Notes under the pieces: generated by a model
Told to the model about the DNA's origin: nothing
What the model saw: only the letters and a program-made list of their open reading frames with translations
Databases searched by the model: none
Made by a program: the position numbers and the translations under genes
Virus record (IMG/VR): IMGVR_UViG_3300046673_000114
Location: 1 to 64,000 of that record
From: a virus
Reading direction: 5' to 3' (one strand)
Length of the DNA: 64,000 bases
Shown: piece by piece, positions 4,667 to 36,889 of the stretch
Layout of the letters: every line of letters starts with the position of its first letter
Numbering within the stretch: the first letter of the stretch is position 1

Positions 4667-7600
4667 ATGGCAAGTCTCGGCGAATTGATGGTCATTATCA
4701 CCGGCAACGCTGATGGTTTAAAGGCCGCGTTAGCCGAAGGTAGCGAGTCGACAGAAGCGTTCGGCGGCGAAATGGACGCGGCTGGCGCTAGTGCAACTGG
4801 TTTCGCTGCGGGTACTGGTGAAGCAGAAGCGTCGGCAACTGGTATGGCTGCCGGTATGGATGATGCGACCGCGAGTGCAGGAGAGCTAGAAGGTGGTTTA
4901 GGCGACGCTGCGGTAGCTGGTGGCGCTGCTGCTGGCGGATTAAAAGACACAGAAGCGGCAGCTACCGACGCGAAAGCGGGAATGAGCGACGCAGCTACCG
5001 AAGCTGGTGGCCTAGGTAGTGCGCTTACAAGCGCGGGTACGTTAGGTGCAGCAGGTATAGGTATCGCCACCGTTGCCGTTGCGGCGTTCGCTATTAAGTC
5101 CGGTGAAACCGTTGATAATGCTTATTCTCAGATGGGAAAAGCAACTGGCTTACAGGGTACTCAACTTCAATCACTTGAGACGCAGTGGGGTAACGTTTAT
5201 GCGAACGTTCCTGCAAGCGCGAGCACCGTAGCGACGGTTATTGATAAAGTAAATAACTCGCTTGGATTACAGGGTGACGCGTTAGGAAAAGCAACGCAAG
5301 ATATTATTGATTATAGTATTGCGACCGGAACCGACGCCACTAGCGATACCGACTCTTTTACGACCGGCTTAACAGAAGCGAATCGTGGGCTCCAAGCGAT
5401 GCACGAGCCCCTTATGACGACCGCGCAGTTATCTGATATGTCTACCGTAGCGTTTCAGAAGACCGGAAAGGGAATCCAAGATTGGGGGCCGGCGTTCGAT
5501 AAAGCTACCGCGTCGATGACTGCGATGGGAATGTCTATTCCTCAGCAAGTCGCGGCTCTTTCTGCGTTCTCACAAGCTGGAATACCCGCTAGACAGTTAA
5601 CTTCTTTATTACAGGGAATCGGCCCCGCCGCCGATAAAGCGGGAGAGAGTCAACAGGCGTTTTGGCAACACTTACTCGAAGATGGAAAGACGGGTGTTTA
5701 TACTCAAGATGAGCTTAAGCTTCTCGGCAAGAACCAAGATAACTTCACCGCAGCGGTTAAGTCGGGGACTATCACTAATCAGGCGTATATAAGCTCTCTT
5801 CAGAATAGCGGTGGTGCGACTGAAAAAGCCGCCGAATCAAACGAGACGTTTGGCGAAGCGTTAACCGAGCTTGAAAATAAGTTAACATTAGCGTTTGCCC
5901 CGCTTGGGACTACTATACTTACCATATTAAAGAACTTCATCGTCGCGTTAACGCCGGTAATTAGTTTTATTGGTCTTTTAGCGAAAGGCTTCGCGGCTCT
6001 ACCTATGCCAATACAAGCGGGTATGCTCGCTATAGGGCTTATAGCCGGTGGTGTCGCTGCTGCCGGACTCGCGCTTAAAATGTTTAATATTAATATTGGA
6101 GATATTATTACGAGCATCACGAAGCTAAAAGGTGCAGGTCTTAGCGATATAACTAATCAACTTAAAGAATTTGTTGGTTTAGGTGGTAGTGGTGCGGCTA
6201 AAGGCGTAGAGGCCGAAGCAGAGAGCGCCGTTGGCAGTGCAAGCTCGAAAAGACCGTGTCCGATAGACCCCGCGTGTTTTGATAAGTGTACTCAGAACGC
6301 GAAAGGCACGACGAGCGAACTAGAGAATATGCAGAATAAGGGGCAGGGCTTCGATAATCTTCTTCAAGACGCTACAGGAAAAACGTCGAATCTCGGTGAT
6401 GTTATAGGTGACGCGTCTGGAGAAACGGGAGAGCTTGCCGCCGGTGCAGGTGACGTTGGCGAAGGATTAGCCGCCGCCGGTGAAGGTGGGGGGATTCTAA
6501 GCGGTATAATGGGTGCTCTTCCGGGGCCGCTCGCGGGAATTCTCGGTAGCGTAGGCGGAATAGGTGAAGGACTACTTGGTGGTGCCGGTGCGGCAGGGGG
6601 ACTAACGGGTGGCTTAGGTGCTGCTGTAGCAGCGTCAGGGCCGTTAATACCAATAACCGGCGCTGTAGCTCTTGGTTTAGGTACAATGGCCGCTACGTCT
6701 GGAACGTTTAGAGGTATGCTCGGCGGTGCGGCTACTGCTGCTGGCGGCGTTATGACTCAAGTGCAGGGCATAGCTGGCGCGCTGATGAGCGGTAACTTCT
6801 CACAAGCAGGTCAATTACTTCAACAGGGATTTCAAGGCGCGATAGACTCACTTAAGAACTTCGATTTCGGTGAGTGGGCCGCGCAGATGATTCAGTCGAT
6901 TAAAGAATCCGTTGGTAATATCGGCGGAATGATTCTTAACGGGCTTTCTAGCTTATCTAACATAGCCGATACGATAATGAACTGGCTAAACGGCATTGAT
7001 TGGAACAGCGTCGTAGATGGTCTTGTAAAAGCAATCACCGGCTTATTCGGCGGTGGTGGCGGTGGCGGTGGCAAGTCTGCTACGACTTCAGTAAGTACCG
7101 GAATGAATAAATCACTCGTAGACGGCGCGACACAAGCAGCGCCTACGGTTTTAATGAAACTCGTGGGGGCGTTGGGGGGTCTCGCTGTTGCGTTATTATC
7201 GATATTCCCGAAGATAGCGATGGCACTTGGTCAGGCGATTCTTAATTATTTAGTAACGCTCGATTGGGGAAGCATCGCGAATCAGCTATGGAGTGCGATA
7301 CAGGGGGCTTTAGGAACGTTAGGCACGTGGGTGTGGGGTTTGCTCGTGCAGGTTCCGGGTCTTCTATGGCAGGGATTCACTTCAGCTCTAGGAACGTTAG
7401 GCACGTGGTTATGGGGACTGCTTACACCGATTCCGGGCGAATTATGGAACGCTTTCGTTAGCGCTATTGGAACGTTTGGAACATGGTTATGGGGTCTACT
7501 TTCACCGATTCCGGGTGAGTTATGGAATTCGGTAACGACACAGAACTGGGGACAGATAGGGCAAAACATTCTAACAGGCGTTGTAAGTATCGGTGGTAGC

Positions 7601-8143
7601 GTTTTAAGCGCCATTACGGGTCAAGATTGGGGGCAGATAGGGCAGAATATCCTAAACGGCATCACGAGTTTAGGTGGACAGATGGGAAGCGCAATATCTG
7701 GTGCCGTAACGAGCGCGCTTTCGGGCGCGAATATCACGTTTACTATCCCGATTATTAATAAAACAGTCTCGTTTAACTTAGCCGAGGGTGCGTATATCGC
7801 AGCCCGTTCGGGCGGCGTTTTAGCGGTTATCGGTGAAGGTGGCGAAGATGAATACGTTATTCCCGCTTCGAAGATGGGCGACCCGACGGCTATATCGGGT
7901 CTACCGAGATTAGCAGGCGGAGCGCTAGTCACTGGGAGCGTTGGTAACACGAACGTTTCAAACGTTATGAGATTAAGCGCGGCTACACCGAGCACGAGCG
8001 CACAACAGAGCGGTGGCGATATGCACATTCATTTCGATGGCCCAATTCATACGGTATCTGTGCAAGAAGCGCGACAGTATGCGAAAATTGTCGGCAATGA
8101 ATTCGATAGCTATCGACGTCGGAAAGGGCAGATGAGAGGTTAA
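4667..8143 (+). CDS. Tape measure protein
   Basis: 1158 aa, Ala/Gly-rich; periodic Trp repeats (GTLGTWLWGLL, QNWGQIGQNIL); C-terminal AVIGEGGEDEYVIP. Confidence 0.92.
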   Translation: MASLGELMVIITGNADGLKAALAEGSESTEAFGGEMDAAGASATGFAAGTGEAEASATGMAAGMDDATASAGELEGGLGDAAVAGGAAAGGLKDTEAAATDAKAGMSDAATEAGGLGSALTSAGTLGAAGIGIATVAVAAFAIKSGETVDNAYSQMGKATGLQGTQLQSLETQWGNVYANVPASASTVATVIDKVNNSLGLQGDALGKATQDIIDYSIATGTDATSDTDSFTTGLTEANRGLQAMHEPLMTTAQLSDMSTVAFQKTGKGIQDWGPAFDKATASMTAMGMSIPQQVAALSAFSQAGIPARQLTSLLQGIGPAADKAGESQQAFWQHLLEDGKTGVYTQDELKLLGKNQDNFTAAVKSGTITNQAYISSLQNSGGATEKAAESNETFGEALTELENKLTLAFAPLGTTILTILKNFIVALTPVISFIGLLAKGFAALPMPIQAGMLAIGLIAGGVAAAGLALKMFNINIGDIITSITKLKGAGLSDITNQLKEFVGLGGSGAAKGVEAEAESAVGSASSKRPCPIDPACFDKCTQNAKGTTSELENMQNKGQGFDNLLQDATGKTSNLGDVIGDASGETGELAAGAGDVGEGLAAAGEGGGILSGIMGALPGPLAGILGSVGGIGEGLLGGAGAAGGLTGGLGAAVAASGPLIPITGAVALGLGTMAATSGTFRGMLGGAATAAGGVMTQVQGIAGALMSGNFSQAGQLLQQGFQGAIDSLKNFDFGEWAAQMIQSIKESVGNIGGMILNGLSSLSNIADTIMNWLNGIDWNSVVDGLVKAITGLFGGGGGGGGKSATTSVSTGMNKSLVDGATQAAPTVLMKLVGALGGLAVALLSIFPKIAMALGQAILNYLVTLDWGSIANQLWSAIQGALGTLGTWVWGLLVQVPGLLWQGFTSALGTLGTWLWGLLTPIPGELWNAFVSAIGTFGTWLWGLLSPIPGELWNSVTTQNWGQIGQNILTGVVSIGGSVLSAITGQDWGQIGQNILNGITSLGGQMGSAISGAVTSALSGANITFTIPIINKTVSFNLAEGAYIAARSGGVLAVIGEGGEDEYVIPASKMGDPTAISGLPRLAGGALVTGSVGNTNVSNVMRLSAATPSTSAQQSGGDMHIHFDGPIHTVSVQEARQYAKIVGNEFDSYRRRKGQMRG

Positions 8144-8144
8144 G

Positions 8145-9581
8145 ATGGGAAGCTCGCAGAAACTAACTTTCGCCGGTCAAGACATCACGCAAGCACCGTA
8201 TAATGCAGTTATGACGATGCAAGCGAAGTATTGGTGGTTAGACGGCTTCACGTCGACACAGTATCCGACAAGCGCCACTTCTTTAGTGAATTCTAAGACC
8301 TATCTAAAGGATTGGGTTATCACGATTTATCTAAGAATCATCTCTCCTGATATGACTCGCGCGACGATGCAATCAAGTTATAATGCGCTTGCACAGCTTT
8401 TTAATCCGCTAAATGGTGACCAGCAGCTTATCTTCGATGAGTTTCCTCTATCGTATTTCATAGCGAAAGGTCAGAAGTTCGCTATAACGAAAGAGGATTC
8501 TGCGAAGCATATCATAGAACTCGAAGTCGATTTTGCCTGCACCGGCCCACCGCGTAGCTTAAGCGAAACGGTCGTGTCGAAAAACATAGCAACCTCACCA
8601 CAGAGTCTACCGATTTTTTCATTAGGCGACGTGCAAAGTTCTCCACGGTATCGCTTCACGGCCGCGCAGGCATACACCGGAAACGTTACAATTAGTAATT
8701 CCGTCACGAATGAGCAAGTCATATGGAATGGTGCGCTTGCAGCAAACGACGTCCTAGATTTTATTATGGACGTTGACTACGGAACGCCTTATACAGTTTT
8801 ACATAACGGCAATCTTTCTATTTCAACAATACAGGGGCCAGCGTGGCCTCATATACCACCTAACGATTCTAGAGTTTCATTAATGGGGCCACATAGCGGC
8901 ACGTTTGAAATTCGGTGGCGCGATAGGTGGCTAGTTGGACAACAGTCGTTAGGCTTACCGACGAATATCTTATTAAGCGCTAATTACGGCACGCCGTCTC
9001 TAGGACAAAACGTTACGTTTAACGTTCAGTTAAATAACACAATGGGGCCAATGTCGAAACCTATCATCGTTTATCATTATACCAATGGTCTTCGCGTTGA
9101 TGATTTCACTGCGACGACCGACGTAAACGGTCAGTATAGCCAGCCTCTTGAGATGGGCTTACCCGAAGACGCCGTTTATTATGCAGGATATAGCGGCGAC
9201 GATAAATATTCTCCAAGCATTAGTAGCGCGGTAACGGTAATTACTCGAGCGAATTCGAGACTTACGTTCACTGTATCGCAGACTAACGTTCACGTAAACA
9301 CAAATACGGTATTCTCCGGTCAGCTACAGTGGTGGAATCCGCTTAATAACGAATGGGAAACCGTACCTGTGCCGAACGAACCAATTCAATTATATTATTA
9401 TCCTAAAAGCGGTGGCGCAACCGTTGGCCCAACTACCTTCTTCACAGACGTTAGTGGTAATTTTACGTTTAACGGAAATTGGAGTAAGATTATAGATAAC
9501 GTCTATTACGTGTACTTCCCGGGCGACGGCGTATATGGCGCGGCACAAAGTCAGAACATAGAAGTTAGTACTTATGCGTAG
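8145..9581 (+). CDS. Distal tail (Dit-like) protein with C-terminal Ig-like domains
   Basis: Follows the tape measure; QLIFDEFP..YFIAK and VDFAC motifs; two C-terminal TTDxxG / YxGD Ig-like repeats. Confidence 0.75.
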   Translation: MGSSQKLTFAGQDITQAPYNAVMTMQAKYWWLDGFTSTQYPTSATSLVNSKTYLKDWVITIYLRIISPDMTRATMQSSYNALAQLFNPLNGDQQLIFDEFPLSYFIAKGQKFAITKEDSAKHIIELEVDFACTGPPRSLSETVVSKNIATSPQSLPIFSLGDVQSSPRYRFTAAQAYTGNVTISNSVTNEQVIWNGALAANDVLDFIMDVDYGTPYTVLHNGNLSISTIQGPAWPHIPPNDSRVSLMGPHSGTFEIRWRDRWLVGQQSLGLPTNILLSANYGTPSLGQNVTFNVQLNNTMGPMSKPIIVYHYTNGLRVDDFTATTDVNGQYSQPLEMGLPEDAVYYAGYSGDDKYSPSISSAVTVITRANSRLTFTVSQTNVHVNTNTVFSGQLQWWNPLNNEWETVPVPNEPIQLYYYPKSGGATVGPTTFFTDVSGNFTFNGNWSKIIDNVYYVYFPGDGVYGAAQSQNIEVSTYA

Positions 9582-17300: not shown

Positions 17301-20300
17301 GAAACGGATGCGCTCATAGCGTCAGAGACGCCGAACGTCGCGCTCGAGGCCGATGAGGTTAGTACCCTTACACCAATCGAGGCACCATCAACCGTAGCTA
17401 CATTAGCCTCTACCGAAATAGACACACTTATACCAATAGAAGCGTTAACGATTGAAGAAGATATAACGATAGGAGAAACCGACGCGCTAAGCGAAGTAGA
17501 ACAATCGGGAGTCGGTGGTAATTATGAGTACGTTAACGCATCAGAAGACATTATATTACTCAACCTCGAAACGCAAGCGTTAAGTGCGACCGCAGAAGCA
17601 GACGAGACGCAGGTTCTAACACCGGACGAAGAGGTTATAGATGAAGCTGATTTAACTGAAATCGATACGATTATACCCATAGAAGCGCCAGCAGGCGAGG
17701 TAGATGTCGGCGAGACTACTTTAATATCATCAACAACTGAGACTATCGATACCGAGGCGTACTATTCGCCGGTTATACACGAAACCGTTGTACTTACGCC
17801 GATAGAAGCAACCGGCACGGATAGCGGAATCGTAGCATCGGTAATCGTTAACGAGTTTATTACACTAAAACCTCTTGAATTAACCACCCCTCAGATTCCG
17901 GTGCTTGTCGCCGAACCGGAAATACTCGTCACTTTCGAAGAGATATTACCCGAGGTTGTTATCGATTATGCCGATAGCGATACGCTAGACATAACCGAAT
18001 CTATAAGCATCGAAGCGAAGTTCTCTCCGTTACAGGGACTCGTAGAAAGTGACGCGCTTAATCCTCTAGAAACGTCAACGTTCGCGTCGACGCTTAGTAT
18101 TAATGAATCTACGAAACTCGCGCCGTCTGAAACCGCGCATCTTACACTAGCAGAAGTCGAATATATAACGCATAACGAAGTGATATACCTCGACGCCGAG
18201 GACTCAACGCTTAACGACCCCGTTGTACTAATACAGACGCCACACGGTCCCGCGACGATAGACGCGCTTGAGGTACAAATTAACACTACTGAATCTAACA
18301 AGCTTAATTCTATAGAAGTCGCAGATATTAATCCGAATGTCTATCACGCACCACCTCCGCTAGTTGATTATGTCTTAGAAGTTCGAAAGAAGGACGGTAA
18401 AAATTGGGATTTAGTAGGCGTATTAGAAAACCGCGTCGCACCAGAGTTACAATGTGAAGTAGGTGCGGCCGACCAGCTTACCTTTAACCTCCCACTTTCC
18501 GACCCAAAATCGCTTTTATTTAACGCATCTAACACGCGTGGATTAGAGGTATGGTATTACGGTAGAGACTCGAAGCTTAAACAAGTTTTTACGATTACCG
18601 GCGGCGGTAAGACAGAAGGCTATCGAGACTACGGCGGAAACCCAGGTGGAAGCGGTAGCACGCTCGGAACCGGCTCGGGAGATTGGCTCTACGTTACCGC
18701 GATTGGGCCTGAGGCATATCTAACAATGTATTATGTCGCAGACTACACCGCAACGCAAAAGTATGTTTCTTCGATATTAAACGCTATTTGTGGAGAAATA
18801 ATAGATGATGGATATATAACCGCCATTCTCGTTGACCCTGCTCTTAATAAACTAATTGATATTGACTTATCGTGGGAAAACCTACAGAGTGCGTTAGGTA
18901 ACATCATTCAACAAACCGGCGGCTATATGCGCGTCTTAGTAAACTCGAATAACCCGTCGAGTCGAGTACTATATCTCTCAAGTGAAGTCGCTTCAGACAT
19001 ATTCCCGATTAATCTCGGCGGCGTGACGGCTGATTCGGTGGGCGTTTGCTCGTGGGGGCCAAATAGATTAGACTTATTCGCGCGAGGCGAAAACTCGAGT
19101 ATCTATCATAAATATTGGAACGGTACTTCGTGGTCTGGTTGGGCTACTCTTGGCGGAACCACTGATAGCGCGCCTACCGCGTGCTCGTGGGGGCCGAATA
19201 GAATAGACGTTTTCGTTCGCGGAACTGATAATATATTATATCAAAAATATTGGAACGGTGCGTGGTCTACATGGATACCACTCGGTGGCACGCTCACCTC
19301 TGCACCAGCCGCAGCTTCGTGGGGGCTAAATCGCATCGATGTAGTTGCTCGCGGAACGAACAATCAACTATACCACATATACTGGAACGGTATAAATTGG
19401 TCAACGTGGGGTACTCTAGGCGGCGACTGCACGAGCGACCCGGCTATAGTATCGTGGGGTGAAAACAGACTAGACGTCTTCGTGCGCGGCACCACTATGG
19501 AGTTGTATCATACGCGATGGGACGGTTCAACGTGGTCGACGTGGGAAAACCTCGGCGGTTATCTAACCACCGGCCCGGGCGCTGCGTCGTGGGGGGAGAA
19601 TAGAATAGACGTTTTCGCTGGCGGAGAGGATAACGAGCTAGAATGGCAATATTGGGGTGGCGACGTTGGTACTCCAATTCACCAGCAGGGAATCGCGTTC
19701 GACGGGACGTATTATTATTATACAACGGATTCTACGATTTATAAGCTCGACGCAAGTTATAACGTCATTGCGTCTAACGCAAACGCGGCCACGCAGTGTG
19801 GTGGTGACCACCTCGGCGGTTTAGGCATACATAGCGGAACTATATACCAATTCTGCACAACGGATGAGACGCCGCAAGTTATGATGGTTGGATTATTTAA
19901 TACGAGCGATTTAAGCTTTATAAGAAATGTCGATTTAACGAAAGTCGCCGGGAATCCGCCGACGTGGAGTACTTATAACATCGGCGGCGTGGGTGTAGAC
20001 GCTGCGAATAACGAACTTGTAGCGATTCACTTCGGTGACGCCGGTAGTCTGTCAGTCGTGGCCCCAAAGGTGTTTAAATTCAACTTGAGCACGTTTGCGT
20101 ACTTAGGTTACATTACTGGAACGGGCGACTTAGGAATCTATTATCAAGGCATCTGCCCGTATGATGGGGTTTATTATTACACCGTCGATAATTCGTCAAA
20201 CGCCAACTCACCTACGCATCTACTCGGCGGCGTGTATATGATGAACCCTGACGGAACGGGCCAGACGATGATAATACCTGCGTCTGTTTTCAATAATGCG

Positions 20301-21530
20301 GTATCCGATTTAGCGTGGAGTGGTGAGATAGAATCACTCAGCGTGACGGACGCGGGTATTGTTGTGCTTTGTGGTGGCTATATCTTTACCTTCTCTCTTG
20401 AACCGCCATATACATTACAAAGCGTCACACCGGGACTACAAGAATTAACGCCTGTGTGGTCTGGATGGGAGTCTTTAGGTGGTTACGTTCAATCATCACC
20501 GGCCGCTTGTAGTTGGGGATATGGAAGAATCGACGTGTTTCTCGAGGGGCCGGATGGTGCAGTCTATCAAATGATATACCAAGAAGACGTGTGGCAGCTA
20601 AAGAAAAAGAATAGCCTAACTAAACACGGACGCGTAGACTGTCCTAAATGCCCGAAGGCCGTGAGAAAAGAAGCAGCCGAGCGTAAAGAAGCAGCCGGAG
20701 ACGTAGAACCGCAAAACGTATGGTCTAATTGGAACGCGCTCGACGTAGACCAGATTCAGCCACCGGTCCCGATTATAAAATACGATGTATTCCCGAGTAT
20801 GGGTGACGTGATAAATAACGACTTAGGCGATAGCGCATACGACGGAGTTGCGTTTAATAACGGTTTCACACAACTTCAATGCGGCGTTGGTGCGTGGGTG
20901 TTTAACGCGCCGCAAGACGTCACGTGGACGAATAACATTCAAATTACGAGTGGGCCGGATATTACGGGATTAGCAGATATGACCCTTAGTATGTGCGTAT
21001 ATATCGACGCGAATCAAACGGCGGTAAATAACCCGAGGCTATTCTCGAAACAACAGGAGAACGGCGCGTTTGAGCTAATCTACGACACGTTTAACCAAGC
21101 ACTCATACTTAGACGATACACAACAAATAACGATTATGACGAGTGGAGAAGCGCACAGAACTCAGTTCCGATAGGCGATTGGTATTATATTCAGTTAATA
21201 TGGCAAAGTAGCGTTAGCCCGGAAACAGAGAGTCCGCCGGTTATTATCGTTGATAACGAGCAGTTAACACTTGTTAATACAGAAGCCGGAACGGGATGGT
21301 GGTCGCCCGACTACTCCAACAATCTCTATATCGGTAATAGCTACTTATTAGATGGCAGCGGTGATTTCGTTGGCATAATGAGCTTCTTTAGCCTATATGG
21401 CGCGGCTATAGTAGACCCAACAGACGACTTTAACACTAACGCGTGGCGGCGAGACCCCGCCGACGTAGACGCGCAGCTTGTTTATAATTTCTTCCCACAA
21501 ATAGTAACTTCCGAGGTGGCAAGTCAGTGA
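14358..21530 (+). CDS. Giant tail-tip protein: LamG-like x4, Ig-like, acidic repeats, N-half of a Tal/prophage-tail hub, PLL/DUF346-like propeller
   Basis: GxWYxIQxxW LamG-like units; ETD repeats; DQLTFNLP hub motif; SWGPNRIDVFVRG repeats. Confidence 0.8.
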   Translation: MLPLIYYVPQNSSTWTNLGSAGTAYNGSVSVNRYNAPDSTHGAPFWGRTDTNDYICYKGTDIDNLNTIGFEIGFEYAAYNGTGLAKLWDKGVGTFFLQINENTHKLLLYRTTNLSGGGQGEVYWTATTTSLTSGNEYYIQVGWTCGTPASPGTPHIYISANGGTPALQSLTYSGASSGTWASDAGLPANVFNYSSSSNCPSSSGSYGLTGYLYVFRQYNTDISSYITSASNGSWYIDKRRMYSWITNYGSGLNTFFGYETISGNSAFPKSGTAIGNVDQLAGFTGHSHYDGSLCYAPLGTSYAQWVWQNNNDYIYTNGAYSLTAPAINDVAVFSSEIAFYYDGNWGSATYPRIFSKMDSSSGEFTLYLDASGGADTGNLILQRECTDGSIDTWMTTTTKLTAGNWYEVQVLWVCGCGPSSPPYSAPVIHINTVTQYVAHNQIGGADWVFDGAGNLVIGNRDGSLGLGECMQGSLVIFRWYPYNASSLFASDYASDSQQWPLTASSISISAPASAIQSQNFTISGTLSYASGGISGATISLLNADTMGVITTTTTDGSGNYSFSISSSTLGSSDFKTSFAGNSTYSSSISAEVTVTISSGIIYDVDGAIVTNCQVEFIGSSFPSSGTTITNVGQASGENGTAYQNDYTLVAAGDAGWVFPNNPSDMITVPANAVLDDMQAVTYEFLVYYAGGSGNLYSKGDASNLNYPLMSIQFNSTSNCLQVNKVASTGTRWNTWFTTTTPVTAGNWYFIQITWNVGTTEGTANPICYINNVNQTISQALTNTGSWTTDAGGIICIGNEYPAANPSQFYGTLVVARIHNVILTSGAGSQLEGNYNASKWRAPTIKNAYVNVDVPGAAAALITLSKIRTDAKLNVSSIVSNATAVSSVVSRADAKINVATITSTAAPVTCIPGLGHSITVDVPGAVAAPITPSAFTTGITSPETDSLAASTEAGSLSNVTVTIAEADSLAPSENVLSNTSIAETDALIASETPNVALEADEVSTLTPIEAPSTVATLASTEIDTLIPIEALTIEEDITIGETDALSEVEQSGVGGNYEYVNASEDIILLNLETQALSATAEADETQVLTPDEEVIDEADLTEIDTIIPIEAPAGEVDVGETTLISSTTETIDTEAYYSPVIHETVVLTPIEATGTDSGIVASVIVNEFITLKPLELTTPQIPVLVAEPEILVTFEEILPEVVIDYADSDTLDITESISIEAKFSPLQGLVESDALNPLETSTFASTLSINESTKLAPSETAHLTLAEVEYITHNEVIYLDAEDSTLNDPVVLIQTPHGPATIDALEVQINTTESNKLNSIEVADINPNVYHAPPPLVDYVLEVRKKDGKNWDLVGVLENRVAPELQCEVGAADQLTFNLPLSDPKSLLFNASNTRGLEVWYYGRDSKLKQVFTITGGGKTEGYRDYGGNPGGSGSTLGTGSGDWLYVTAIGPEAYLTMYYVADYTATQKYVSSILNAICGEIIDDGYITAILVDPALNKLIDIDLSWENLQSALGNIIQQTGGYMRVLVNSNNPSSRVLYLSSEVASDIFPINLGGVTADSVGVCSWGPNRLDLFARGENSSIYHKYWNGTSWSGWATLGGTTDSAPTACSWGPNRIDVFVRGTDNILYQKYWNGAWSTWIPLGGTLTSAPAAASWGLNRIDVVARGTNNQLYHIYWNGINWSTWGTLGGDCTSDPAIVSWGENRLDVFVRGTTMELYHTRWDGSTWSTWENLGGYLTTGPGAASWGENRIDVFAGGEDNELEWQYWGGDVGTPIHQQGIAFDGTYYYYTTDSTIYKLDASYNVIASNANAATQCGGDHLGGLGIHSGTIYQFCTTDETPQVMMVGLFNTSDLSFIRNVDLTKVAGNPPTWSTYNIGGVGVDAANNELVAIHFGDAGSLSVVAPKVFKFNLSTFAYLGYITGTGDLGIYYQGICPYDGVYYYTVDNSSNANSPTHLLGGVYMMNPDGTGQTMIIPASVFNNAVSDLAWSGEIESLSVTDAGIVVLCGGYIFTFSLEPPYTLQSVTPGLQELTPVWSGWESLGGYVQSSPAACSWGYGRIDVFLEGPDGAVYQMIYQEDVWQLKKKNSLTKHGRVDCPKCPKAVRKEAAERKEAAGDVEPQNVWSNWNALDVDQIQPPVPIIKYDVFPSMGDVINNDLGDSAYDGVAFNNGFTQLQCGVGAWVFNAPQDVTWTNNIQITSGPDITGLADMTLSMCVYIDANQTAVNNPRLFSKQQENGAFELIYDTFNQALILRRYTTNNDYDEWRSAQNSVPIGDWYYIQLIWQSSVSPETESPPVIIVDNEQLTLVNTEAGTGWWSPDYSNNLYIGNSYLLDGSGDFVGIMSFFSLYGAAIVDPTDDFNTNAWRRDPADVDAQLVYNFFPQIVTSEVASQ

Positions 21531-24043
21531 GTATAGTAACCGTAGAATCCGATGAGATTGCAGTTTTATTACCGTATGAACAGATTCCTTTTTCGAGTAT
21601 AGAAGCGGACGAAGTGTCTACGCTACTACTCGATGAGGTAACGCTTCCCGAATCGTGGTATCTAGAAGAAGCAGGAGTAAGCGTCGTTAGCACGCTTGTT
21701 CCGAACTTCGGTGCCGCTGGAACGGACTATCACGCTTATGGCGCGCAAAATGACTTTATAACGCTTCCGAGCGGCGCGACAGCGTGGCAGCTTAGCGGCA
21801 ATATGGATTATATAGCGATTCCTCGCGGCGTTAGTATTGATAACGTAACGCAAACGACCTTCGAATGGTTGTTCATCCTTAATGATTATAGTGGTAACCA
21901 CGCCGGTAGATTATGGTCAAAACGTCAGACTCACGACGGAAGTTTTGATGTTTACGTAGACGATATAAACGGCTGTATCGTAATTCAACGAGGCACGATT
22001 CTAAACGAGCTAGACGTGTGGCAGACGCCAAATAACGTAATAGACGTAGGTCAGTGGTGCAACCTTCAGATAACGTGGAACTGTGATATTTCGGCCGGTG
22101 GCGACGCGCCGATAATTATAATAAACGATACACCTCAAGAACTTCTTCACACGAACGTTGCGAATCCTGCTCTATGGGCGGATGATAGTAACGACGACGC
22201 GTTTATTGGAAATGTTATAGGTGGCGGCTATAATCTAAATGCGACAATAGCGGTATTTAGACATTTTACGACCATAAAAACCCCGTCGAAGCTTACTACG
22301 GACTATCTCGCCGACGTGTGGCGCACGAGTAATAAACAATTAGGCCCGATTACCGTCTCATCGGGACCAAGTAACGACACCGACCCGATACTCACTATTG
22401 AAAAGAATCTTAGTAACATCTACGCACAGACTGATTTCTCGACGGTCGTCACGCAATGCGAGCCGCGAGGCATAGGACAAAAGCCAGCAGAGCTTCGATT
22501 TAATAATCCTAATTATTATCCTAATGCACAAGCGTTACAGCTCTATACAACCGACACGAGTTGGGCGTATTTTAGACTTCAAAGTCCTTATGTTTATGCT
22601 AACGCTACATATTCTGGACAGCCGTTGCCTAGCACTATGCTCGTAGGAACCGGATTAACTGATTTCTGCAATATTTCGCCTACATTACAAGCCGATAGTA
22701 CATACCCCGACCCTAACATGGGAGAGTCACCGCCAGCACCTTATGACGGTCAGCCGATTGGACGTGATGACTTTGCTGGACACGGACTCGTTTTTAAACT
22801 AAACGCTAATACGCGTTTCACCGACGCTAGTTTTTTCTTATATAAAAAACCGGCAGCGACGGCCGGTCAAAAAGCGCATCAGTTTCTAGTAGGAATTTAT
22901 TATATACAAAACACCCCCGACGCGGCCCTAAATGAATACGTTCCATCTCAGGGGCCGTTAGTTTGGTATATCGGTGACCTCGACCAGATTCAGCCGGATA
23001 CGTGGGCGTGGTACACATTCCCCTTACAACAAGCAGCGATAAGTCATACACCGTGGGATTGGTACGCTCTAGTGATTTCAGTGTATCCGACGACCGGCGC
23101 GAATTGGGAAGGCGACATTCTTTGGGTCGGTTTTAAGATGACGAATGTAGAACCGACACAAAATACCCCGTATCAGTTTATGTGGACGTTCGCAGGTAAT
23201 CCCGCGTACTCTGCCGGAAGTAATGTTAAGAATTGGGCAAGCGCAGCAATGGCCGCGAAAGCACCGGGTGCTATGTCGCGCCCTGCTTGCGTTCTTCATT
23301 CAATAACAACAGATTTAACGAGCGAGTTTCAACAGAGTCTAAACGCGTGTCCGGGCTGGCAGCTTAAAATGCCGATAGCAAAATACTCGCCGACTTCGCA
23401 ATATTGGGCGCATTACCAACAAGCGCCGTGGCTTATCGATTGGGAGGCGTATTCGACAATGGGTAAAGTAGAAGGAACCTATAAATCAGACACGCTTTCC
23501 TCACACGACGCGCTCTTTAATGCCGGTGCAAATTATCTATCAACGGTGTCTAACCCGACTTATACAATTTCGCTAAGTGCATTAGACTTATACGATTTAG
23601 ACCCACAGAAGAATTGGGCGGAAGAGCTTCGTCTCGGAACGACGGTTATGGTACTCGACGCCGAGCTTAATATTCAAGAACAATGTCTCGTAACGAAAAT
23701 TACTAAAGATAACCTCGAGCAGCCTCACGACATACAGATAGAATTAAACAGTTTATACGCGACTGCGGCGAGGTCGATGGCGAACATAAATCAATCGAGT
23801 ATTACCTATCCAAAGTATCTAAGCGGCCAAACGGTCTCTGCACCGTATATAATGAGTGGTGCTTGCACTGATACGACCCCGGCATCACTCTACTTTGAGA
23901 TAAAAGAAGGGAGTACGCTTGTTCCGTCGGTTACGATAAGCATAAACCCGACACCATATCAGGTGGCGACGAGCACCGGCGTTACCTCTGATACAAGTAC
24001 CTCTACCGCGTTTAAAATGAAAATAGACGGTGTAGTGGTGTAG
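21527..24043 (+). CDS. Tail protein: LamG-like domain plus the C-half of the Tal/prophage-tail hub
   Basis: EKNLSNI..TDFSTVVT, LRLGTTVMVLD and IELNS hub motifs; ends at KIDGVVV. Confidence 0.75.
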   Translation: MSIVTVESDEIAVLLPYEQIPFSSIEADEVSTLLLDEVTLPESWYLEEAGVSVVSTLVPNFGAAGTDYHAYGAQNDFITLPSGATAWQLSGNMDYIAIPRGVSIDNVTQTTFEWLFILNDYSGNHAGRLWSKRQTHDGSFDVYVDDINGCIVIQRGTILNELDVWQTPNNVIDVGQWCNLQITWNCDISAGGDAPIIIINDTPQELLHTNVANPALWADDSNDDAFIGNVIGGGYNLNATIAVFRHFTTIKTPSKLTTDYLADVWRTSNKQLGPITVSSGPSNDTDPILTIEKNLSNIYAQTDFSTVVTQCEPRGIGQKPAELRFNNPNYYPNAQALQLYTTDTSWAYFRLQSPYVYANATYSGQPLPSTMLVGTGLTDFCNISPTLQADSTYPDPNMGESPPAPYDGQPIGRDDFAGHGLVFKLNANTRFTDASFFLYKKPAATAGQKAHQFLVGIYYIQNTPDAALNEYVPSQGPLVWYIGDLDQIQPDTWAWYTFPLQQAAISHTPWDWYALVISVYPTTGANWEGDILWVGFKMTNVEPTQNTPYQFMWTFAGNPAYSAGSNVKNWASAAMAAKAPGAMSRPACVLHSITTDLTSEFQQSLNACPGWQLKMPIAKYSPTSQYWAHYQQAPWLIDWEAYSTMGKVEGTYKSDTLSSHDALFNAGANYLSTVSNPTYTISLSALDLYDLDPQKNWAEELRLGTTVMVLDAELNIQEQCLVTKITKDNLEQPHDIQIELNSLYATAARSMANINQSSITYPKYLSGQTVSAPYIMSGACTDTTPASLYFEIKEGSTLVPSVTISINPTPYQVATSTGVTSDTSTSTAFKMKIDGVVV

Positions 24044-24047
24044 AACG

Positions 24048-25055
24048 ATGACAACATACGCAGCGTATCAATTATGTGCAGAATCATTCTCAAACTATGC
24101 TCAACTTAAAAGTCAGGGATTTATTGACCTCGTTCTAATTGAAAATATAAATAGTAGTTGTAACGCGTGTCCGGTTCCGCAGGGCTTTATAAACGGATGT
24201 ACTGCGCAGGGAATGGGTTCGCTCTTAAATAACGGTAATGACGCTGGCGGAGGTGGGGGTGGCGCGAATCAGTCATACTATGCCGGACTAAAAAAGCAGG
24301 GATTAAGTGGGGCCGGTGGTGAGTCTGAAAGTCTAGATGAAGTTAACGCCATTTTAGCAAACACAGATAGTACGTTTGTCTTTATGAACTATGGTGGACA
24401 GGGAACCGGCGGCCCAACAGGTAATAATAACATATGGGCTTCGCAGGGTGGTCACTGCTCGTATAGTGGTGGTGCAACGATAGGCTCAGGACAAAAAGTC
24501 TCTTCGTTTATAGAACCTTACGCACCGGGACTAATGTCGACTGAAGAGGTAGAAACCGAAGCCGGGTACAATAAAGACGCTGGTTGTTTTGAGGTTGGGA
24601 TTTTAATAGTAGATTGGTTCCCCGGTGCTAATTATGCGGGATATGCAGACGCGGTAATATCCTCAGGAGCTACCTTCGGGGGTTTTCAGTTCTGGTATGT
24701 AGAAGGAGACAGCGCGAGCGGAAGTAATAATTGGGGACCCGGAAGTAGCGATATAAATAATATGATGAAACAGTTTCCGCCGAATACTAAAAACATAGTG
24801 CAGCGCGCCGGTGGGTCGTCACCCGGTGGCGGCGGAGGTGGGGGGTCGGGGCCCGGTAGTAATATTCCGGCAATCACAGGCGGTAATACGTTCGGCGGTA
24901 ATAGTGAGGTTGATATTTTACCATATCTAACGCAAAATCATCAGGGTCAGCCAACGCCGGGTGTACACTACGTAGAGCTTAGTTCGGCAGATGGAATACG
25001 CGCACAAGTAACCGCTTCAGTACGCGTACGAACTTGGCAGCCAAAGGAGATGTAG
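24048..25055 (+). CDS. Putative virion glycoside hydrolase with C-terminal tail-attachment module
   Basis: Paralogous to the 49838 N-domain (NNGND, AGGESE, YGGxGTGG); poly-Gly linker plus a shared 67-aa module. Confidence 0.6.
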   Translation: MTTYAAYQLCAESFSNYAQLKSQGFIDLVLIENINSSCNACPVPQGFINGCTAQGMGSLLNNGNDAGGGGGGANQSYYAGLKKQGLSGAGGESESLDEVNAILANTDSTFVFMNYGGQGTGGPTGNNNIWASQGGHCSYSGGATIGSGQKVSSFIEPYAPGLMSTEEVETEAGYNKDAGCFEVGILIVDWFPGANYAGYADAVISSGATFGGFQFWYVEGDSASGSNNWGPGSSDINNMMKQFPPNTKNIVQRAGGSSPGGGGGGGSGPGSNIPAITGGNTFGGNSEVDILPYLTQNHQGQPTPGVHYVELSSADGIRAQVTASVRVRTWQPKEM

Positions 25056-26059
25056 ATTAGATAATGTCGCAATATATCTACTACAAGTTTGATAAAAGTT
25101 CGACTACAATCACAAATTATGGTAGTGGTGGTGCTGGTTGGAACGGAGCCGCTGCACGAAATCAGTATGCTACCGACTCAGCAGGGCATCCGAGGTGGGG
25201 GCCGCTAACCGGTAATCAAGATGTGATACACGTTCCCGGCGGTCTTAGCAATCCATATCAGCACACGTGGCAGATTGGATTAAATATTCAGCAGTGGTGG
25301 CCGGTTAAAGGTATAGACTCTAGTGGCATCCTTTGTGGTAACGACGGAAAGCTCTTTTCTTACGCTAATGACCAGTACTACGCCTACCTTCACGAAGAAG
25401 GGTCAACCGCAAGCGGGTCGCTAGTTGAAACAGGCATACATCATTTTACTGTTGAAATTGCGGACGTCGGTAGTGGTAGTGTTGAGTTTTGGCTTGGTGT
25501 GGGTAGTAGTAAACCCGTTCAAATATCTACTGATGGAGGCGAAGGTGACGAGGGTGGGCGACACTGGTGGGATTTCGACTACAACTTACAGTTAAACACT
25601 AATTACTATTTTCAGATTGTGATAAACCTTAGTAGCGGCGTGACGGGAAGCGATTATTATATTGGCAATTGTGCGCCGGGGTGTGCTGATACGATGGTAG
25701 TCGGCTTTCCGTGCGGATGTTACATTTACTCGTGGCGTGAAGATAACACAGTTCTTGACCTATCGGGCGGTGGCAACTGGAAAGACGACGTTGGCTGTTG
25801 GGCTGGTGGAACGTGCGGGGGCGCAGCCGGTGGCGGCGGCGGCGGTGGTGGTGGTCCCGGTAGCGTAATTCCAGCAATTACAGGTGGTAACACGTTCGGG
25901 GGTAATAGCGAGATTAACATTCTACCTTATCTAACGCAAAATCATCAGGGTCAGCCAACGCCGGGTATGCACTCTGTCGAGCTTAGTTCAGCAGATGGAA
26001 TACGCTCGCAAGTAACCGCTTCGGTGCGCGTACGTGATTGGCAACCTAAGAATATGTGA
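24852..26059 (+). repeat. 204-bp direct repeat (24852-25055 and 25856-26059) encoding the shared module
   Basis: 8 of 67 aa differ; many nucleotide changes are synonymous. Confidence 0.95.
25064..26059 (+). CDS. LamG-like adhesin with the same C-terminal attachment module
   Basis: TNYGSGG..WNG unit resembling the 14358 repeats; poly-Gly linker plus the shared module. Confidence 0.6.
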   Translation: MSQYIYYKFDKSSTTITNYGSGGAGWNGAAARNQYATDSAGHPRWGPLTGNQDVIHVPGGLSNPYQHTWQIGLNIQQWWPVKGIDSSGILCGNDGKLFSYANDQYYAYLHEEGSTASGSLVETGIHHFTVEIADVGSGSVEFWLGVGSSKPVQISTDGGEGDEGGRHWWDFDYNLQLNTNYYFQIVINLSSGVTGSDYYIGNCAPGCADTMVVGFPCGCYIYSWREDNTVLDLSGGGNWKDDVGCWAGGTCGGAAGGGGGGGGGPGSVIPAITGGNTFGGNSEINILPYLTQNHQGQPTPGMHSVELSSADGIRSQVTASVRVRDWQPKNM

Positions 26060-26706: not shown

Positions 26707-26916
26707 GTGGTGATAAAAAAAATGGGTATAAAGTTAAGTTTAGGTGGTTCGCTTCCGAGCACGGCCGAGTGGCTTCTAATTATCGGTTTTATAGTCGGCG
26801 CACTTGGAATTGCCTCGCAGACGTTTTCATTTAGCGGACAAGACAGCGCAATAATCCTATTTGTGGTCGGCGTTCTGACGTTGCTCGCGAAGACCATTAC
26901 CTCTACATCTGCTTAA
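26707..26916 (+). CDS. Two-TM holin-like protein
   Basis: Two hydrophobic segments; last gene before the terminator. Confidence 0.5.
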   Translation: MVIKKMGIKLSLGGSLPSTAEWLLIIGFIVGALGIASQTFSFSGQDSAIILFVVGVLTLLAKTITSTSA

Positions 26917-27330: not shown

Positions 27331-28538
27331 GTCAATTACCCACGCTAAAGCGATGGGCTTGTATCTCCTTCAACTTTTAGGGATACAATAGGCTGATTGA
27401 CGGCAGCCCTCGAAGCGATGTTCTTTGCCGCATTTATATCGGCGTTTTCAGTGTATCCACACGCAACGCAAACAAACTCGCTCTGTGTCTTGCGGTTCTT
27501 CTTGTCAATGTGTCCACACTCTGAACACTGCTTCGACGTGTTTCGCGGGTCGATTAGATGGACGGGAACGCCGTTGAGTTTCGCTTTGTAGTCTACGAAC
27601 CATCTCAACTGGCCGAACGCCCACTTACCGAGTCTACCACGCTGTGCCTTTCTAACCGTTGTCCGAGAGCGTATGTGCGTCAAGTCCTCTAATACAATCG
27701 CTCTCTTTGTGTCTTTGGCTATTCCAACAATAACTTTTGAAATACAATGATTGAGATTCGTCTTAAACTTCCGTTCTTTGCCGCTCGTCCGCTTCAGATG
27801 CCGCTTCGCGCTCTTGGTTCCTTTCGACTGAAGTGCTGACTTTAGCTTCGTGTAGCGCGTTCTAACAGCATCGGCCTTATCGCCACTGAAGTGCTGACCG
27901 TCGCTTGTGGTTGCGATATTGACAATTCCCAAGTCTACACCTAAGTAGCCTTCCGCGTTGTATTCTGTCACCCCTTCAACTTCCACGACCACGCAGAGAT
28001 AGAACGTTCCCTTTTGAAGTATCAAGTCGGCTTGTCCTCTGACTCGTCGCTGTTCAAGTTGGGCGTAGTCCCCGATTGAGAACGGTATGAGCTTTCGACC
28101 GTCGAGAGTCAAGATTGAAACCGAATCGAGAGACTTGAACGATAATATTCTTTGGTCATAGACAACAGCGCTGTGTGGTTTGAACGTGTGTAGCTCTTGC
28201 CGGTGTCCTTTGCCACGGTATGACTCTGAGACTTTGGCTATCGCTCTGACTGCTAACTGTGCCGATAAACCGTAGGTATCTCGAATATAACGATAATGCT
28301 GCTTTTGAAGCGTCCGTTTACCGAATACTCCTTCTTGATAGGAGACTGACGAAACGTAGTTGCACGCTTCGTTGAACCGTTCCATTGTGGTTAAGAGGGC
28401 AGCATATTGCTCGTCGGTCGGATTGAGCTTTGCTTTAACGGTTAGCAGCATCATAGAATATATGGCTCTATTCTTAGTTAAGTTTTGTGTTAGACGCGAT
28501 TCCTCTCAACGCTAAAGCAGTTGAGCTTCCTCGCTCGA
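27331..28538 (-). mobile_element. IS200/IS605-family tnpB-only element 1
   Basis: Subterminal hairpins at both ends; RE ends GGGTAATTGAC; LE preceded by TTTAT on the minus strand. Confidence 0.88.
27345..28454 (-). CDS. tnpB: RNA-guided nuclease TnpB
   Basis: GVDLG, LEDL, CSECG/CVACG zinc ribbon, NADINAA. Confidence 0.95.
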   Translation of the reverse strand: MMLLTVKAKLNPTDEQYAALLTTMERFNEACNYVSSVSYQEGVFGKRTLQKQHYRYIRDTYGLSAQLAVRAIAKVSESYRGKGHRQELHTFKPHSAVVYDQRILSFKSLDSVSILTLDGRKLIPFSIGDYAQLEQRRVRGQADLILQKGTFYLCVVVEVEGVTEYNAEGYLGVDLGIVNIATTSDGQHFSGDKADAVRTRYTKLKSALQSKGTKSAKRHLKRTSGKERKFKTNLNHCISKVIVGIAKDTKRAIVLEDLTHIRSRTTVRKAQRGRLGKWAFGQLRWFVDYKAKLNGVPVHLIDPRNTSKQCSECGHIDKKNRKTQSEFVCVACGYTENADINAAKNIASRAAVNQPIVSLKVEGDTSPSL

Positions 28539-35746: not shown

Positions 35747-36889
35747 ATGAGTTATATCCTAGACCTAGCAAAAAGTTCGTCACCAATCATTAAAGACGAG
35801 CATATTCTAGAATCGAATTATATTCCAGATACAATCGTCGGTCGACATAAGCAGCAAGAAGAGATGTGGCCGCCACTTTCTCATCTTATGAAAGGTCAAC
35901 CAGCGCATCATTTACTCTTAATGGGGCATAACGGTTCCGGTAAAACGGTTGTCATTCGTAGCGTTCTTCGGGACCTCGAGACGGTAACCGACTTTCAGAC
36001 GATATATCTCCCAAGCGTGCGCGACCCTAAGCCTAACTCGGTAATGCGTCGACTTCTAGAAGCATCAGGCGTGGCGCTCCCACCGAAAGACGAGTCGGTA
36101 GCGAGTCTAATAAATCTTCTTGATAAGCATTTATCCACCATAGATAAGCCCATTATATTCATATTCGACGAAATAGACTTCTTTATCTCAAAGGATATGT
36201 GGACGGTTCTTAATTATATCGTGCGCGAAAGAGATATGGCGACCGTCGTAGGCACGACGAACGACCCGAGGCTTCTAAGTAAGATACCGGATAAAAAGTT
36301 AATCTCGGCATATAGACCCTCAACCGTAACATTTCCGCCGTATAACACAGACGAACTACGAGAAATACTCGAGTCGAGAGCTGAGAAAGCGCTTTATGCG
36401 AACGTATTAGAAGCTGAGGTTATACCTCGATGTGCTGCGTTGGCGGTTAGGTTAAATAACGGTGATGCTCGTTACGCTATCTCATTGCTTTCGAAGGCCG
36501 CCGAGATATGTCATACAAACCTTCAAAAGAAAGTTACTAGCGAAGATGTTATACAAGCGGTGCAAGAGCTAGAGAACGAAGAATATGATAAAATAGCCTC
36601 GTTATTATCGGAGCGGCATAAGAACATTCTACGCATATTAATTATTAAAGATAACATACGACGAGCAGAACTACAGGAAGTCTACGAAACTAATAATTCC
36701 TATGATGTTATTTCCGATGTGTGGTTCGCGAGAGAGCTAAGAACGTTAGAAGAATTTGGTCTTATAATCCGATGGTCTAAAGGTAAGGGTCGCGGACTAG
36801 GCGTTACGTGGTTTGTTTCGTTACACGAGGACATTGATAAAGAGAAACTTAAAGAAGTTTTATACCGTGATTTAGGTGGCGGGGCGTGA
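35747..36889 (+). CDS. cdc6: Orc1/Cdc6 replication initiator
   Basis: GHNGSGKT Walker A, IFDEID Walker B, FPPYNTDEL, GDAR, C-terminal winged helix. Confidence 0.93.
   Translation: MSYILDLAKSSSPIIKDEHILESNYIPDTIVGRHKQQEEMWPPLSHLMKGQPAHHLLLMGHNGSGKTVVIRSVLRDLETVTDFQTIYLPSVRDPKPNSVMRRLLEASGVALPPKDESVASLINLLDKHLSTIDKPIIFIFDEIDFFISKDMWTVLNYIVRERDMATVVGTTNDPRLLSKIPDKKLISAYRPSTVTFPPYNTDELREILESRAEKALYANVLEAEVIPRCAALAVRLNNGDARYAISLLSKAAEICHTNLQKKVTSEDVIQAVQELENEEYDKIASLLSERHKNILRILIIKDNIRRAELQEVYETNNSYDVISDVWFARELRTLEEFGLIIRWSKGKGRGLGVTWFVSLHEDIDKEKLKEVLYRDLGGGA

Follow-up and report, generated by a model that had tools for sequence, protein, structure and literature searches.

In chaperone-usher pili, an incomplete beta-sandwich is completed in trans by a strand that belongs to another protein, and the non-covalent links formed in this manner are very stable. 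The adaptor-based branched tailspikes of CBA120 or G7C and the cohesin-dockerin pairs of cellulosomes hold several enzymes on one scaffold by means of a shared exchangeable module. Here we describe a tail-tip locus where, to judge from sequence comparison, the last domain of a tail hub is quite likely split between genes, such that the proteins encoded downstream would complete the sandwich of the hub in trans. The locus is contained in a stretch of 64,000 nucleotides (nt), hereafter called the window, that represents the first 64 kb of the 80.5-kb IMG/VR virus record IMGVR_UViG_3300046673_000114, for which the completeness estimated by CheckV is ∼48%. It consists of the hub gene and the two payload genes that directly follow it, which we call gene 2 and gene 3.

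The closest mechanism described previously is the loading of cargo onto a type VI secretion system (T6SS-1) of enteroaggregative Escherichia coli. There, the phospholipase Tle1 contributes its N-terminal strand to fill out the TTR domain of the VgrG spike, and each trimer carries three cargos, as summarized in PMC10715212. The same summary relates the spike to phage hubs and applies the term “fold complementation” to the completion of its C-terminal beta-sandwich by a cargo strand (PMC10715212). HFTV1, the one archaeal siphovirus whose tail has been solved, possesses a trimeric hub with three appendages and with C-terminal domains that project downward (PMC12494034). In the literature on strand or fold complementation in phage tails, we found no case besides the T6SS analog. 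To our knowledge, the manner in which envelope-degrading enzymes or adhesins are attached to the tails of non-halophilic archaeal viruses is essentially unknown.

The Hub's C-Terminus

The hub of the window is a member of the Tal-like family. Residues 255 to 754 of this protein match positions 62 to 250 of the PF06605 profile with a score (Table 1) above the cut-off of 31.3 bits (E 1.9e-14), and positions 231 to 426 of phrog_4311 are matched with an E value of 2.8e-13. The gene resides within the tail block, downstream from the tape measure gene and from a gene with weak similarity to Dit, which is the position expected of a Tal-like hub.

A preliminary description of this DNA noted that the hub ends with the residues ...FKMKIDGVVV and that the next two genes each end in a glycine linker plus a shared module. 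The open reading frames (ORFs) and a BLASTP comparison agree with this account. Gene 2 (24048–25055, 335 amino acids) and gene 3 (25064–26059, 331 amino acids) align only over the 64-amino-acid module, where 57/65 residues are identical (88%, E 2e-36), and their N-terminal domains are unrelated. All three genes are tightly packed within the tail-tip block, with 4 nt separating the hub from gene 2 and 8 nt separating gene 2 from gene 3.

The hub and the module meet at a single point in a profile of the hub C-terminus. The window's hub matches positions 1–102 of a 140-position hidden Markov model (HMM) of hub C-termini, and this match stops exactly at the protein end. Genes 2 and 3 match positions 102–139 of the same model, and the matches are complementary and without overlap. 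By these alignments, one domain has consecutive portions to which the end of the hub and the module, respectively, are homologous.

The preliminary description had also stated that the domain is continuous in Firmicutes prophage tail proteins, and a continuous form does exist. When the C-terminal 205 amino acids of the window's hub were compared with phage records by tblastn, a record of an Enterococcus phage was recovered (E 2e-5). The tail protein encoded by this phage, Efs 1-1-1 (OR846658.1; L020:2168-3622), carries full PF06605 (E 3e-63) and PF18994, matches phrog_4311 (E 2.7e-227), and includes all six strands of the domain uninterrupted in one chain. An HMM derived from virtual concatenations of hub and payload matches this protein without a gap through the position at which the hub of the window ends, which we call break site A (E 1.4e-11). 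In a MAFFT alignment, the phage protein is colinear with hub plus module across this site and a second one described below, and remains so up to the protein end, where its last strand (...DASVICRVYIQ...) aligns with ...QVTASVRVRTWQ... of the module.

Further matches point in the same direction. Isolated modules map to positions 598–640 of the 651 positions of phrog_4311, and the module from one related locus (L008) does so with an E value of 0.0032. An exhaustive HMMER search with the module yielded 11 proteins at E ≤1e-3. Included in this collection is a hub fragment (P0012) wherein an ...IIIDG... motif continues straight into the first part of the module. A dedicated search recovered no proteins of greater length with the module. 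Separately, a scan of prokaryote genomes with the module recovered just 18-residue matches (72% identity) to its ...DI..YLT..H.GQ core in Bacteroidota (metagenome-assembled genome contigs L012–L014 of Chitinophagales), which probably reflect chance.

It had been claimed at the outset that readthrough of a TAG codon could not join the hub to the module, and this remains true. The hub stop codon (TAG, 24041–24043) and the start of gene 2 at 24048 are in different frames, and the module is encoded ∼800 nt further on; therefore, readthrough cannot connect them. More generally, recoding, protein trans-splicing, or isopeptide-type ligation might restore a single covalent chain, either while the pieces are translated or afterward. 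Engineered split sandwiches such as SpyTag/SpyCatcher do ligate, and an intein within the payload of one relative reveals that splicing elements circulate in these viruses. We regard covalent joining as extremely unlikely, because the frames differ, the module is separated from the hub end by 270 payload codons, and a single hub chain cannot be fused to two or three payloads at once. Moreover, no split-intein motifs are located beside the break sites, and the intein just mentioned (L017) resides inside a peptidase domain rather than at a junction.

Two Break Sites among Relatives

Our comparison set comprises metagenome and IMG/VR loci retrieved with alignments of the module and the hub, plus 25 hub relatives. 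In type A (the window, P0003, L008, P0031, P0039, and P0040), the hub stops 3–6 residues past an ...IDG/VDG motif. Hubs of this type hold strands 1–3, whereas the downstream payloads hold the linker and strands 4–6. In type B, which includes more than 20 hub clusters (L010, L011, L017, L018, and P0041 among them), the hub runs through ...EIDV..YLT..HNGQPTPG.H.V.V and then stops, and so it holds strands 1–5. The two or three payloads of the type-B loci L010, L011, L017, and L018 carry a Pro/Thr linker and the last strand only, which amounts to ∼16 conserved residues (N.N..V.VR.YQP..E).

The type of the hub equals the type of its payloads in all six readable loci (type A for the window and L008; type B for L010, L011, L017, and L018). 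Compared with single-chain homologs, the terminal sandwich of the scaffold lacks strands, and at each of the six loci the cargo carries exactly the strands that are missing.

The payloads of one type have orthologs in the other. Thus, gene 2 is 43%–45% identical to the TIM-like payloads of type B, gene 3 is 52% identical to a type-B LamG-like payload, and in the alignment of gene 2 orthologs the difference is precisely the presence or absence of the middle segment. This segment is covalently attached to the hub in type B and to the last strand in type A. By the domain-fusion (“Rosetta stone”) argument, the hub, the middle segment, and the last strand should therefore be in contact.

The break point has also moved repeatedly. 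A maximum-likelihood tree of the shared hub region requires at least three changes of break site, with a type-A hub nested in a type-B clade of 100/100 support and the type-B hub P0041 positioned beside the clade of the window. This moving break point is the strongest evidence for a split domain. The split-domain reading, first proposed from the letters of the window, is strongly supported by this second break site in combination with the single-chain homolog. We dropped a different history, in which the type-A state came from the cutting of a hub that contained a payload domain at site A, because the gap of ∼190 positions in phrog_4311 is located in the loop that joins strands 2 and 3 and not at site A.

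These comparisons also bear on whether the end of the hub is real. A frameshifted, misassembled, or degenerating hub gene might be suspected in a metagenome-derived record with an estimated completeness of 48%. However, a hub that is 55% identical and comes from another metagenome (P0003) stops at the same point (...FSMKIDGRQV), and thus the hub end is conserved and not an accident of assembly. The other type-A hubs share this end as well, whereas the type-B end is common to the more than 20 clusters and to three independent contigs of one cluster, and both plugs, as we call the C-terminal pieces of the payloads, are under purifying selection (see below). Artefact or decay is thus effectively refuted.

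The most conserved feature of all payloads is their C-terminal end (VRVR..QP..E/M). This would be compatible with a role as a processing, sorting, or assembly-chaperone tag, with the likeness to the hub being a relic of recombination and no stable complex being formed. C-terminal tags of such size exist in other systems. We consider a tag very unlikely, because it leaves unexplained why hubs lack exactly the strands of their own payloads at 6/6 loci and why, in the single-chain protein, the domain comes to its natural end with the last strand. The payload tail also lacks a hydrophobic helix or any known sorting motif.

Additional scans of viral contigs with the window's hub, the module alignment, and the hubs P0040 and P0031 found nothing, and a tblastn search of phage records with the C-terminus of a type-B hub gave no match.

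Payload repertoires differ among loci. Three payloads per hub (TIM-like, papain-like C1 [PF00112], and LamG-like) are present in L017 and L018. The papain-like type exceeds the PF00112 cut-off of 20.7 bits in L005 (38.1 bits) and L017 (28.6 bits) and is absent from the window. In agreement with the expectation that other viruses would place the module on varied N-terminal domains, it was found on TIM-like, papain C1, and LamG-like domains. The 664-amino-acid papain-like payload of L017 (L017:7454-9445) is interrupted within its peptidase domain by the intein noted above, which includes an HNH endonuclease (PF14890, E 7e-17; HNH_3).

Three small proteins (P0010, P0014, and P0015) end after strand 5 (...PG.H.V.V...) and have no hub in front. 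Their middle strands are preceded by a Zn ribbon, a CxxC thioredoxin-like domain, or the tail of a TIM domain, with the Zn ribbon belonging to P0014. Both P0014 and the type-A hub P0031 come from contigs of 10,859 bp. This pair may represent a three-piece split, in which a site-A hub, a Zn-ribbon protein with the middle strands, and payloads with the last strand would each contribute a part, or it may consist of gene-call fragments.

Payload Domains and Their Plugs

Aside from genes 2 and 3, no module or plug-like C-terminus was found in the 80.5-kb record. Over 64 codons, the two modules differ by 19 synonymous and 12 non-synonymous changes, with 0.60 synonymous (dS) and 0.087 non-synonymous (dN) substitutions per site and a dN/dS ratio of 0.146. 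By these values, the duplication is old and both copies are under purifying selection; the preliminary description had likewise supposed that both are selected.

For the N-terminal domain of gene 2, AlphaFold2 (AF2) gives a model with an alternating strand-helix pattern whose core reaches a predicted local distance difference test (pLDDT) score of ∼75–90. Its best Foldseek matches are concanavalin B (GH18-like), GH5 enzymes, and aldolases (E ∼4e-4; template modeling [TM] score 0.44), and it has no Pfam or PHROG match. The glycosidase assigned initially thus corresponds to a weak TIM-barrel fold match. The domain models as TIM-barrel-like, and glycoside hydrolase activity is a guess. The LamG adhesin proposed for gene 3 fared similarly. 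An ESM Atlas model of its N-terminal domain matches Laminin_G_3 clusters with a TM score of 0.60, and its N-terminus resembles the repeated domains of a 2390-amino-acid protein encoded upstream of the hub. A Pfam match (PF13385) is lacking, and the domain is a candidate LamG-like lectin or adhesin.

A paralog of the TIM-barrel-like domain of gene 2 (31% identical) is encoded at 49850–50572. The corresponding 389-amino-acid ORF (49838–51007) has no plug-type C-terminus, and it appears to provide the gene 2 activity a second time in a form that is not tethered.

The plugs track the genome rather than the cargo family. Although the N-terminal domains of gene 2 and its ortholog P0008 are 61% identical, their plugs share only 41% identity, as compared to 88% for the plugs of genes 2 and 3. 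Likewise, the plugs of the LamG-like and C1 payloads in L007 are 72% identical. Such likeness within one virus would be expected if all payloads fit one socket, whether it is brought about by co-adaptation, by occasional gene conversion, or by both.

The preliminary description went further to suggest that the tips might be switchable. This suggestion found no support, as neither an invertase nor another switch was seen. A DNA switch was rejected as a candidate because the modules are direct repeats, for which recombination would delete rather than invert, and because no recombinase was seen beside the locus.

Proposed Mechanism and Its Support

On the reading that we favor, the distal domain of the hub would be a beta-sandwich of about six strands. 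The hub would supply strands 1–3 and then stop, which would leave an open socket, while the TIM-barrel-like gene 2 product and the LamG-like gene 3 product would each bring strands 4–6, preceded by a flexible Gly linker. As the tail assembles, a payload would complete the hub sandwich in trans through fold or strand complementation and would then be tethered by its linker at the distal tip of the tail. This location would be useful for entry if the payloads comprise a lectin and envelope-degrading enzymes. Hubs of the Tal-like family, as known from solved siphovirus hubs, are generally trimers. A trimeric hub would present three sockets to be shared by two payloads, presumably by mass action, and mixed tips are plausible. 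We infer in this scheme that the pieces bind each other, that the hub is trimeric, that the payloads are carried by the virion, and that they act on the host envelope.

Several points weigh against this scheme. Two payloads face three presumed sockets, and the trimeric state, the incorporation into virions, and the enzyme activities are all inferred. The single-chain reference is an unverified record of 10.8 kb, and the match of the window's own module to phrog_4311 is weak (E 0.3). Structure models also need to be interpreted with care. AF2 assigns pLDDT scores of 73–86 to strands 1–5 in the final 80 residues of a type-B hub and scores of 28–51 to the linker plus module of gene 2, a contrast between hub and module that is confounded by alignment depth (23 vs. 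6 rows). A structural search with the hub domain recovered GH2 N-terminal sugar-binding domains, CBM35, protease P-domains, and lambda gpJ with Z scores of 5–6.7, which for fold matches of a partial domain fall in the range common for generic sandwiches.

These models weakly suggest that the C-terminal domain of the hub is a jelly-roll or galactose-binding-like sandwich. By our own reading, the motif series “strand-IDG / ..DI..YL / G.H.V.V / final strand” also resembles domains of this kind. A BFVD fold search with the model of the hub C-terminus, whose N-terminal half is poor, returned no meaningful match.

An alternative proposal is that the module is an independent C-terminal domain, perhaps a small carbohydrate-binding or anchoring unit, that folds alone, binds a target other than the hub C-terminus, such as a different tail protein or the surface of the host, and has been shuffled between hub and payload genes by recombination. 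The module indeed is located behind a flexible linker on very different N-terminal domains, as mobile binding domains are, and sandwiches of the hinted class (galactose-binding-like or carbohydrate-binding-module-like) often bind sugars. However, what type-B payloads retain behind the linker is ∼16 conserved residues, a length insufficient for independent folding, and AF2 does not fold the module confidently by itself. Furthermore, the start of the module falls precisely at the hub end within one continuous profile, and the single-chain homolog places all pieces in one domain. For these reasons, we judge an independent domain to be unlikely and retain the divided sandwich as the preferred explanation.

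A more general formulation, to which we assign even odds, is that these viruses employ a natural and evolutionarily mobile form of split-sandwich docking. Any protein ending in a linker and a plug of ∼16–60 amino acids could then be hung on the tip, with up to three unrelated cargos, mixed tips, and maybe a three-piece version.

Genomic Setting of the Tail-Tip Locus

The coordinates of the features discussed here are collected in Table 1. The tail-tip block proceeds from the tape measure gene through the Dit-like gene, a gene for an 821-amino-acid protein, and the gene for the 2390-amino-acid protein (14358–21530) to the hub, followed by the payload genes. A Pfam match of the tape measure protein to PhageMin_Tail is below the cut-off for that family. 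The next protein is probably a Dit-like distal tail protein, although its profile matches are weak; its placement right behind the tape measure fits this assignment.

Table 1. Features of the tail-tip locus and host-indicative genes in the window
Feature	Position	Strand	Basis or remark
Tape measure protein, start of block	4667..8143	+	Best match to PHROG tape-measure families, E 1.2e-19
Probable distal tail protein, Dit-like	8145..9581	+	Below Pfam cut-offs: SPP1_Dit, E 6.9e-4; Sipho_tail, E 0.009
Candidate N-terminal part of hub inside 2390-amino-acid protein (residues ∼1318–1536)	18309..18965	+	Separate gene upstream of hub in relatives
Tail hub, Tal-like (“Prophage endopeptidase tail”)	21527..24043	+	838 amino acids; PF06605, 54.4 bits
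Putative “socket,” strands 1–3 of hub C-terminal sandwich (LYFEIKEG... / VTISINP / FKMKIDGVVV)	23882..24040	+	Ends at break site A
Gene 2 payload domain, TIM-barrel-like, possibly a glycoside hydrolase	24048..24818	+	AF2 model and Foldseek
Gene 2 Gly/Ser/Pro linker	24819..24863	+	Read from sequence; pLDDT 28–33
Putative “plug” 1, strands 4–6 of hub domain (DILPYL / GVHYVEL / QVTASVRVR)	24864..25052	+	HMM positions 102–139, E 1.7e-11
Gene 3 payload domain, candidate LamG/concanavalin-A-like	25064..25828	+	ESM Atlas model match
Gene 3 poly-Gly linker	25829..25867	+	Read from sequence
Putative “plug” 2, strands 4–6 of hub domain	25868..26056	+	HMM positions 102–139, E 3.7e-10
Coiled-coil protein with C-terminal membrane helix	26305..26673	+	ORF translation; 3′ of payload genes
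TnpB/Cas12f-like genes (n = 2)	27345–28454 and 36902–38020	−	Antisense to viral genes
Orc1/Cdc6-type initiator	35747–36889	+	

The body of the hub itself seems to be divided between genes. Positions 1–61 of PF06605 and the D1 domain of PF18994, which make up the N-terminal part of the family, are not in the 838-amino-acid chain. Residues ∼1318–1536 of the 2390-amino-acid protein are 47% identical (E 2e-52) to a 352-amino-acid gene product (L017:3797-4852) that precedes the hub in a relative, and in P0041 (2675 amino acids) the giant protein and the hub are fused in one chain. This segment is probably the N-terminal part of the hub. No Pfam match was found for the 2390-amino-acid protein or its putative hub part, and sequence searches of the PDB returned nothing for either the profile of the hub or its protein. 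The giant protein carries lectin-like repeats and DUF346 blades.

Two genes located 3′ of the payloads may be accessory candidates for lysis or entry. The first encodes a coiled-coil protein with a membrane helix and is also present behind the payload genes in L004, L006, L007, L017, and L018. The second (26707–26916) encodes a 69-amino-acid protein resembling a two-helix membrane protein.

The main hints to an archaeal host are the two TnpB/Cas12f-like genes and the Orc1/Cdc6-type initiator encoded in the window. Relatives of the tail hub are known solely from metagenomes, and no provirus copy was found in scans of ∼185,000 prokaryote genomes, in which the hub alignment gave no match. Because of this combination of genes, metagenome-only relatives, and lack of a provirus copy, the virus is a probable archaeal tailed virus.

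Comparison with Known Systems

The locus and its relatives offer a concrete and testable answer to the question of how activities might be mounted on tails of such viruses. Cargo would complete a domain of the hub. Comparative data of unusual clarity support this answer, because the domain is known as one chain and in two ways of splitting, with repeated changes from one form to another. The locus would also illustrate that, in nature, a protein domain can withstand being cut at different loops. If correct, this arrangement suggests a simple means to exchange tail-tip activities, because recombination could place anything before a short plug. Plug and socket pairs could then serve as protein-docking tags, and on the broader docking formulation the plug would amount to a portable peptide tag of natural origin with which virus tails could be decorated.

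Chaperone-usher pili share the completion of a sandwich in trans. However, their pilins are immunoglobulin-like, donate strands from N-terminal extensions, depend on a chaperone and an usher, and form polymers. In the tail-tip locus, the donors would be C-terminal and would attach enzyme cargos to a hub, and no chaperone or usher genes were seen among the ORFs examined. The CBA120/G7C adaptors and cohesin-dockerin pairs differ in another respect, because they use complete, autonomous attachment domains that usually are N-terminal in phages. The plug described here would instead be a fragment of the scaffold's own domain.

The appendages of HFTV1 provide a comparison within archaeal viruses. 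Its fibers are held at the hub N-terminus by hydrogen bonds and Mg2+, and the report describes no split domain or strand complementation (PMC12494034). The single-chain Tal protein of Efs 1-1-1 has a homologous hub body and a C-terminal domain that corresponds strand for strand. Unlike the proposed split forms, one chain makes the entire domain, and no genes for plug-ended payloads are located behind it.

The T6SS analog invites the most detailed comparison. In VgrG-Tle1 loading, the strand donated by the cargo is N-terminal, and the cargo has additional contacts with the spike (PMC10715212), whereas the payloads considered here would give one or more C-terminal strands carried on a long flexible linker. 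The completed domain would also be different, namely the jelly-roll-like C-terminus of a Tal protein, and there is no sequence relationship between the two. Furthermore, a single plug is common to several cargos that are unrelated, the position of the break shifts between two loops, and the setting is the tail of a virus, probably an archaeal one, rather than a secretion system. What would be new at this locus, therefore, is the use of a different domain, C-terminal plugs on linkers, several families of cargo, movable break sites, and a virus setting. Loading by fold complementation would thus have evolved also on a virus hub, with another domain and with the opposite chain polarity.

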